From IMG/VR virus record IMGVR_UViG_3300045988_126875: a DNA stretch of 64,000 bases; one strand, given 5' to 3'. Position 1 is the first letter of the stretch, and each line of letters starts with the position of its first letter. Positions 18,291 through 18,502 of the stretch are shown one piece after another. The stretch is from a virus. The translations under genes were made by a program, and so were the position numbers. The notes beneath the pieces were generated by a model. That model was given only the letters and a program-made list of their open reading frames with translations. It had not been told where the DNA came from and did no database searches.

Positions 18291-18502
18291 AAGTCAGGAT
18301 TTCTCCTGTAAGTACCCATCGCCAATGTTATTTTGAGGTTTTATATAATGGCAACACTGTTTCGTCAAATACACTACTCCTGTTTAATCACCATCCTTAG
18401 AGCTACGAACTTGGGCAAACATCCGTAGGTAACTATCTATTCTCAAATAACGTAGCCTCTGTTTCAAGGCTTAGGCTAATAACCCGATCTCTGAAAGAGA
18501 TG
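18291..18502 (-). ncRNA. structured RNA element, copy A (HEARO/omega-RNA-like; paralog of element upstream of IscB-like gene)
   Basis: ~75% identical to 48668-48875 with compensatory changes in three hairpins (cagga/tcctg vs cagag/ctctg; agcct/aggct vs agtgtt/aacact; atctct/agagat vs aatagc/gctatt); strand inferred from co-orientation with IscB. Confidence 0.45.

Follow-up and report, generated by a model that had tools for sequence, protein, structure and literature searches.

ORF-less omegaRNA elements of the IscB type inserted before ATG motifs in crAss-like phage genomes

Introduction

The structured RNA known as HEARO reportedly goes back to Weinberg et al. 2009. ISC (IscB) transposons have been described as inserting at the target N/ATGA, without duplication of the target (Kapitonov, Makarova and Koonin 2016, PMC4810608; the slash marks the junction here and below). 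In the 2023 preprint of Meers et al., the IscB omegaRNA abuts the transposon end, the guide lies outside the element, and TTCAT is given as the transposon-adjacent motif (TAM) for IscB. The same authors point out that PATEs carrying omegaRNAs, which are mostly of the TnpB type, have to be served in trans. According to a passage in PMC11610941, Altae-Tran et al. 2021 reported standalone omegaRNAs. Within the literature searched, no paper was found that links IscB elements and crAss-like phages.

The DNA analysed here, henceforth referred to as the window, is a 64,000-nt stretch from a crAss-like phage whose closest GenBank record is csAssE-Sib (OR575929.1, human gut), with 88-96% identity in the flanks of the features described below. 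Two HEARO RNAs are encoded in the window and are referred to as copy A and copy B.

Results

Two homologous HEARO RNAs in the window

A first-pass annotation of the window had aligned two regions, 18291-18502 (copy A) and 48668-48875 (copy B), at ~75% identity and had proposed that copy A is a second, nuclease-less copy of an IscB-associated structured RNA. The homology was confirmed, with a mean column identity of 77% over extended regions (MAFFT) and 84.7% identity over a 177-nt core (blastn, E 3e-48; 18306-18482 against 48684-48854), and both of the conserved blocks quoted at the time are present and identical between the copies. Homology is restricted to the RNA: the flanks are unrelated, a blastn search for common flanks or a common far end of the two copies found none, and blastn within the 64,000-nt window found no third copy of the RNA. 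Rfam cmscan placed both copies above the gathering score of 83 for RF02033 (HEARO), copy A at 18538..18308 (-) with 93.4 bits and copy B at 48877..48686 (-) with 102.8 bits. A permissive scan at E<=1 returned no further Rfam match to HEARO in the window.

The three hairpins for which compensatory changes had been named are real, and pairing is kept through double changes in each of them. Read on the RNA (minus) strand of copies A and B, respectively, they are CAGGA/UCCUG and CAGAG/CUCUG, AGCCUU/GAGGCU and AGUGUU/AACACU, and AUCUCU/AGAGAU and AAUAGC/GCUAUU. The RF02033 matches and the covariation described below thus bear out copy A as a second copy of the IscB-associated RNA; a single IscB-like gene is present in the whole window, so the stated lack of a second nuclease gene also holds. 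Copy A lies, as described, in a non-coding gap, 576 nt long, between a DUF4494 gene at 17635..18105 (-) (Pfam 1e-41) and a 224-aa gene at 18682..19356 (-). The homologous regions are as originally given, but the RNA is on the minus strand and the unit is larger than either region: the copy A element extends over 18550..18189, and the omegaRNA of copy B starts at 48935.

Insertion sites in the host genome

Both RNA copies are absent from csAssE-Sib, in which site A holds an intact 86-aa ORF and site B an intact 100-aa ORF; copies A and B are therefore insertions relative to this close relative. Remnants of the 86-aa ORF are found in the window at 18551-18612 and 18146-18184 (-), its 5' half (~121 nt) having been deleted and the rest being split by the element. 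A 24-codon ORF in the window now reads from the flank into the copy A element. At site B, the window keeps only the first half of the 100-aa ORF (48922..49074).

At several insertions, host DNA between two nearby ATG(G) motifs was lost, with one junction at each motif. The lost DNA amounts to 166 nt of the 100-aa ORF at site B (window 48936/47385 compared with locus L002, 2387-2552), ~70 nt in locus L034, and, at site A, 9 nt of an (ATG)n run (L033 against L029 and L046). Loss of DNA between two ATG sites is unexpected under simple peel-and-paste transposition.

Copy B is the omegaRNA of an IscB transposon

Comparison of several insertion sites, together with its absence from csAssE-Sib, delimits copy B as part of a complete non-autonomous IscB transposon at 47386..48935 (-), which consists of an omegaRNA and iscB and runs from 5' ATAATCGCG to ATATAGAC 3'. 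The omegaRNA scaffold occupies 48665..48935 (-); its true P1 starts at the element border (48935) and not at 48877, as indicated by P1 covariation and MFE folding. The iscB gene (47410..48635 (-)) is distributed over two frames in the window, with the N-terminal 29 codons at 48635..48549 and the remainder at 48555..47413, and the tblastn match is split correspondingly. With one A restored in the run GACAAAAGG, the frame encodes a 408-aa protein with a PLMP/RRXRR N-terminus (Pfam RRXRR, 4e-59, positions 1-174/174) and a split RuvC with inserted HNH (HNH by Pfam). This protein matches the IscB chains 7utn and 7xht in PDB (E ~1e-41).

As it stands in the window, the iscB frame is interrupted at an A4 run near 48555, after ~codon 27. 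The window reads GACAAAAGG at 48549-48560 (-), compared with GACAAAAAGG (or GAAAACAAGG / GCAAATAAAG) in five homologs, which on base-by-base comparison have AAAAA or AAACAA where the window has A4. Since iscB also reads as a single frame in the relatives with a full-length tblastn match, the frameshift is private to the window. The 1-nt deletion separates the PLMP domain from the rest of the protein and reflects either true inactivation of the gene or a sequencing error in the homopolymer.

A 48-nt block common to the two window copies retrieves 23 loci from IMG/VR, all of which are of the copy B type (B-type), and IscB follows the RNA wherever the locus is long enough. Across the insertion sites compared, B-type elements are bounded by 5' ATAATCG...ATATAGAC 3' and then ATG. 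In L006 and similar loci this ATG starts the DUF4494 gene; in the window (47383..47385 (-)) it is the start codon of the downstream 87-aa gene, o87, as annotated in csAssE-Sib.

IscB relatives are frequent in these phages, with 304 IscB-encoding stretches identified by a protein search of IMG/VR. Of 88 omegaRNA copies that could be classified in a further sample, 83 were IscB-linked and five were orphans. One of the orphans, L176, is a second, distinct ORF-less omegaRNA element whose tail hairpin, followed by a T-run, resembles an intrinsic terminator. Two IscB genes were observed on each of the contigs 127883 (L019/L107), 121141 (L121/L125), 147128 (L098/L133) and 116941 (L101/L113), and in three of these four pairs the identities to the window IscB differ (86-93%). 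tblastn with approximate IS200/IS608 TnpA queries gave no match to a Y1 transposase in the window or the fetched loci. On the 20-kb contig of locus L260 (NZ_JBHMEP010000019.1, labelled Vibrio olivae), the IscB shows 80% and the omegaRNA 85% identity to their crAss-like counterparts. This contig was the sole match to a conserved 20-mer in 185,579 species genomes, a search that at this stringency yielded no Bacteroidales source; gut phage contamination and horizontal transfer are both possible for this contig.

Copy A belongs to a family of ORF-less elements

An exact search with a 39-mer spanning the 3' hairpin and tail of copy A, in which only exact matches were counted, identified 61 IMG/VR loci on ~57 crAss-like contigs from seven metagenomes. 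These loci are referred to as the A-type. None of the 61 has an IscB directly downstream by tblastn; copy A likewise has no co-oriented iscB directly downstream, whereas copy B has one. Copy A is thus a standalone HEARO member. By manual comparison of contig names, at least 23 A-type contigs also carry IscB elsewhere, and contigs 121141 and 102995 each contain two A-type copies.

The canonical A-type unit is 365 nt long (range 358-366 nt) and runs from 5' ATAACCCC to GGGAT 3'; the window copy, at 18189..18550 (-), lacks part of the first ATA. Near-perfect conservation ends abruptly at both borders in 57 aligned copies, and the flanks fall into at least 10 unrelated classes, which correspond to at least 10 distinct sites. 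No ORF of >=40 aa was found inside the copy A element. The unit is made up of three segments. The omegaRNA scaffold (18288..18550 (-)) has intact core pairs and includes a 3' hairpin, CAGGAGAAAUCCUG, past the end of the Rfam model. It is followed by a filler of ~62 nt (18230..18287 (-)), conserved in all 61 loci, which folds by MFE into two G+C-rich hairpins, AUCCCUAACGGGAU and CAUCUACC..GGAGACCGAAAGGUCUCC..GGGGAUG. The last ~40 nt (18189..18229 (-)) are the far transposon end, or LE in the convention of Meers et al. Subterminal hairpins are predicted near both A-type ends by MFE folding and may include one recognised by a Y1 transposase; those of the filler may serve as a 3' end or terminator, or in transposase binding.

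Insertion directly before ATG

Flank comparison and empty sites revealed neither a target-site duplication nor terminal inverted repeats at A-type elements, with a 2-nt AT ambiguity left at the junction. Empty alleles at four sites read N/ATGG or N/ATGT, namely ...GTGTT/ATGGAATTG, ...GTGTT/ATGGTAC, ...GATGT/ATGTTATT and ...GAG(ATG)nATGGACG. The second of these is a RuvC start codon, which is unoccupied in the window at 46699. The third is unoccupied in the window near 41710, beside a tRNA cluster. Both of these sites carry an A-type element in other phages. The cluster itself comprises four tRNAs at 41791-42152 (-) (Rfam tRNA, 46-68 bits).

An ATG follows every A-type copy whose right end was found. 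The A-type thus inserts immediately 5' of ATG(G), often the start codon of a gene, without target duplication. At copy A, the adjoining flank motif is ATGG at 18188..18185 on the minus strand, the presumed TAM (CCAT on the plus strand, 5' of the element end). B-type elements obey the same rule, ending directly before ATG, and the rule agrees for both types with the N/ATGA target (PMC4810608) and with the TTCAT TAM (Meers et al.).

The first-pass annotation had counted membership in a repeat family such as a MITE, with terminal inverted repeats and target-site duplications, as evidence against a functional RNA. Both copies do belong to transposon families, though to families that lack these two hallmarks, and such membership is no evidence against a functional RNA, since every omegaRNA is inherently a component of its transposon.

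In locus L030 (IMGVR_UViG_3300045988_115526), an A-type element has the left flank of the RuvC-start site on one side and the right flank of site A on the other; the two sites lie ~29 kb apart in the window. Either recombination between copies or a chimeric assembly at the 365-nt repeat would account for this arrangement.

RNA structure and position of the guide

The HEARO-like structure was assessed across 34 diverse copies, in which 94% of cells are paired and 27 of 78 pairs are changed on both sides. On four of five measures, the observed value was reached by none of 500 shuffles; for further pair types it was reached by 17 of 500. Slid-partner controls gave 34-41% paired cells and 4-7 double-change pairs. 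RNAalifold by itself scored compensatory changes at 18 of 52 pairs. The core of copy A shows only alignment-related breaks, as does the IscB-linked omegaRNA of L159, and is as intact as the latter. The segments of a candidate pseudoknot, GCCUA/UUGGC, are invariant and so uninformative on pairing.

The first 7 nt of the element have a perfect complement in the 7 nt that precede UAGCC, and the two segments constitute a terminal P1. This helix covaries, occurring in the four versions ATAACCC/GGGTTAT, ATAATCG/CGATTAT, ATATCCG/CGGATAT and GTAACCG/TGGTTAT; a fifth, ATAATCT/GGATTAT, was read by eye from the sequence of L260. Independent MFE folds gave the same three-way junction in all three folded types. 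As the scaffold starts at the transposon border, the guide must come from the flank. The border-anchored P1 and flank guide agree with Meers et al. and differ from the internal P1 of the Rfam alignment. In the window, the presumptive guide segment of copy A is the flank directly 5' of the scaffold, 18551..18566 (-). For the canonical A-type element of L033, the putative guide is CCTATCTAATAATGAG, and the matching empty site reads CCTATCTAATAATGAG followed by ATGATG.

Two alternative placements were rejected. The Rfam placement of P1 (internal AUUAACCC for copy A; AUAAU at 48877 for copy B) fits the covariation and the folds less well than the terminal 7 nt. A fixed 16-nt internal guide, ATAACCCCAAATAGTA, was dropped because the terminal P1 fits better, and most A-type copies have TTAAACC at the internal site.

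Origin of the A-type

Positions 1-265 of copy A align to the omegaRNA of L159, and positions 328-368 align at ~80% identity to positions 1513-1553 of the L159 element, which follow the iscB stop codon. The intervening positions 266-327, comprising the two G+C-rich hairpins, have no counterpart in L159 or in full IscB elements. As judged from these alignments, the A-type is an internal-deletion, PATE-like derivative of an IscB transposon. Both ends and the 5' domain of copy A resemble L159-type and not B-type elements. None of the IscB-linked omegaRNAs among 80 loci exceeded 90% identity to the A-type; a fit to the IscB of copy B (~84% scaffold identity) is assumed. Scaffold variants are mosaics of modules common to several lineages, a pattern that points to module exchange between lineages.

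State of the window copy

Locus L033 contains the same element at the same site as copy A. Compared with L033, the window carries a 9-nt deletion at the junction of flank and element (CTATCTAATAATGAGATAACCCC -> CTATCTAATACCCC) and three substitutions, all in one stem and with pairing kept (G-C -> A-U; G.U -> G-C). Through this deletion the canonical transposon end is lost and the register between guide and ATG motif is altered, and the window copy is the sole A-type copy without the canonical terminal P1. A shifted P1 that uses flank bases can still form according to the MFE fold. Judged by its missing end, copy A probably can no longer move, and the ancestral empty site may now be out of reach of its guide. 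Given the junction deletion and the frameshift, the pair of copy A and iscB may be decaying in this genome.

A 48-nt block (18396-18443 = 48774-48821) is identical in copies A and B, and none of the ~30 other A-type copies compared has it; these differ from the block at wobble positions of stems. The identity could reflect gene conversion between the window copies.

Discussion

The most probable explanation for copy A, to which a probability of roughly 75% is assigned, is the insertion of a nuclease-less element of ~365 nt of the IscB type (ISC, IS200/IS605 superfamily) that is served in trans. This reading builds on the identity, borders, target rule, multi-site spread, ancestry and structural integrity of the A-type documented above. 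The A-type RNA would be transcribed by read-through from the co-oriented upstream gene and loaded in trans by the IscB of a full element, either copy B or an element of a co-infecting phage. Cutting of alleles without the element would then be directed by the guide from the flank together with the ATG motif, and recombinational repair would copy the element into the cut allele, resulting in homing or retention. New sites would be reached via a Y1 (TnpA) transposase, likewise supplied in trans. Of the three roles suggested in the first-pass annotation, that of a trans-acting guide is, on the sequence evidence, the most plausible mode of action for the A-type family; the accompanying idea of a two-guide mini-array found no support. 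For this particular genome the trans-guide reading is weaker, because its sole iscB is frameshifted and copy A carries the 9-nt junction deletion.

These same two lesions are what would be expected if the family is or was mobile elsewhere and both copy A and its partner are inactive here, the RNA being idle. Copy A has lost its transposon end and guide register and is alone among A-type copies in lacking a perfect P1, and the relatives examined have an intact iscB. Several points speak against such inactivity: the frameshift falls within a homopolymer and may be a sequencing error, copy A retains a fully intact core scaffold with only three stem-preserving substitutions relative to L033, a shifted P1 with flank bases can form, and a co-infecting phage could supply IscB. 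Inactivity of the pair in this genome is therefore viewed as possible, yet not as the expected case.

At the level of the family, it can be tentatively envisaged that a few IscB transposons supply the nuclease, while scattered omegaRNA-only "guide satellites" borrow it and take their guides from their own flanks, resulting in a two-tier RNA-guided drive. If this were true, one nuclease could cut and convert rival genomes at many loci during co-infection, and the satellites would be either hyperparasites of the IscB element or weapons of the phage. It has a lower standing that omegaRNA-only elements act on IscB itself, either as decoys against the cognate omegaRNA or as extra guides for cutting competitors. 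The A-type does occupy more sites than the IscB elements seen here, several genomes have both types or two A-type copies, and scaffold modules have been exchanged between lineages. The 48-nt block of the window copy is also identical to that of copy B, unlike ~30 other A-type copies. A MITE-like parasite of the transposon would, however, give an equal pattern, and such an action on IscB is considered improbable.

Still less likely is that a full omegaRNA and iscB element once resided at this very locus and lost its nuclease in place, leaving copy A as a one-off remnant. At least seven related contigs (L006, L007, L012, L013, L016, L018 and L019) do hold a complete omegaRNA and IscB in the shared interval between the 224-aa gene and DUF4494. 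These resident elements, however, are of the B-type and only 84% identical to copy A, whose two ends are both L159-like. Their right end abuts the DUF4494 ATG, while that of copy A adjoins an ATGG inside the 86-aa ORF remnant, and the identical ORF-less unit has the same borders at 10 or more other sites and here in L033. The earlier suggestion that copy A is the remnant of a second IscB element minus its nuclease thus stands as regards ancestry, the A-type being an internal-deletion derivative, but the loss did not occur at 18189..18550: the occurrence of the ~365-nt ORF-less unit at >=10 unrelated sites and in 61 IMG/VR loci leads to rejection of in-place loss. Least credible is a cis-acting leader, terminator or regulator of the downstream DUF4494 gene, a proposal akin to the shared structured 5' leader of the first-pass annotation, since the upstream position, common orientation and strong hairpins that favour it are outweighed by A-type copies that precede many unrelated genes or sit inside ORFs, by copy B preceding iscB and not a DUF4494 homolog, and by csAssE-Sib, which expresses the same gene block without the element.

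With the A-type family recognised as an omegaRNA-bearing, PATE-like element, what appeared to be a single orphan RNA is explained by established transposon biology. The A-type represents, in a phage, a kind of parasitic element that is already known, and not a new system. Its value lies in being a concrete, abundant and testable case of omegaRNAs that are set apart from their nuclease and would be served in trans, an idea that has mostly been stated in passing. Known empty sites, an ATG motif and a matching IscB family in the same phage clade would allow direct tests of RNA-guided homing between viral genomes. Annotation is affected as well, since the elements sit exactly at start codons and remove small ORFs next to them, and as 365-nt repeats they can lead metagenome assemblies of crAss-like genomes astray.

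Comparison with known systems

Compared with the HEARO/IscB omegaRNA of RF02033, the window RNAs have the same multi-helix architecture, including the candidate pseudoknot, and copy B lies directly upstream of iscB as expected. They differ in that copy A has no downstream iscB, the 5' domain is longer than in the Rfam alignment, P1 is formed from the first 7 nt of the transposon, and an extra 3' hairpin extends beyond the model.

The closest parallels to the A-type are PATEs and standalone omegaRNAs. The A-type is likewise ORF-less and multicopy, has both transposon ends, and inserts site-specifically without target-site duplication, and its omegaRNA would similarly need both a nuclease and a transposase in trans. 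The described PATEs reside in bacterial and archaeal chromosomes, whereas the A-type is found in crAss-like phages, is of the IscB type and is often located at start codons. Copy B and its relatives correspond to ISC transposons in encoding IscB only, without TnpA, and in inserting 5' of ATG(A/G) without target-site duplication; they differ in residing on a phage replicon and, at several insertions, in the loss of DNA between two nearby ATG sites.

Phage co-infection is the classic setting for homing. As with the free-standing homing endonuclease genes of phages (intronless homing), an allele without the element would be expected to be cut in co-infection and converted. In contrast to those genes, recognition here would be performed by an RNA guide and a short motif, and the nuclease for copy A would be encoded elsewhere.
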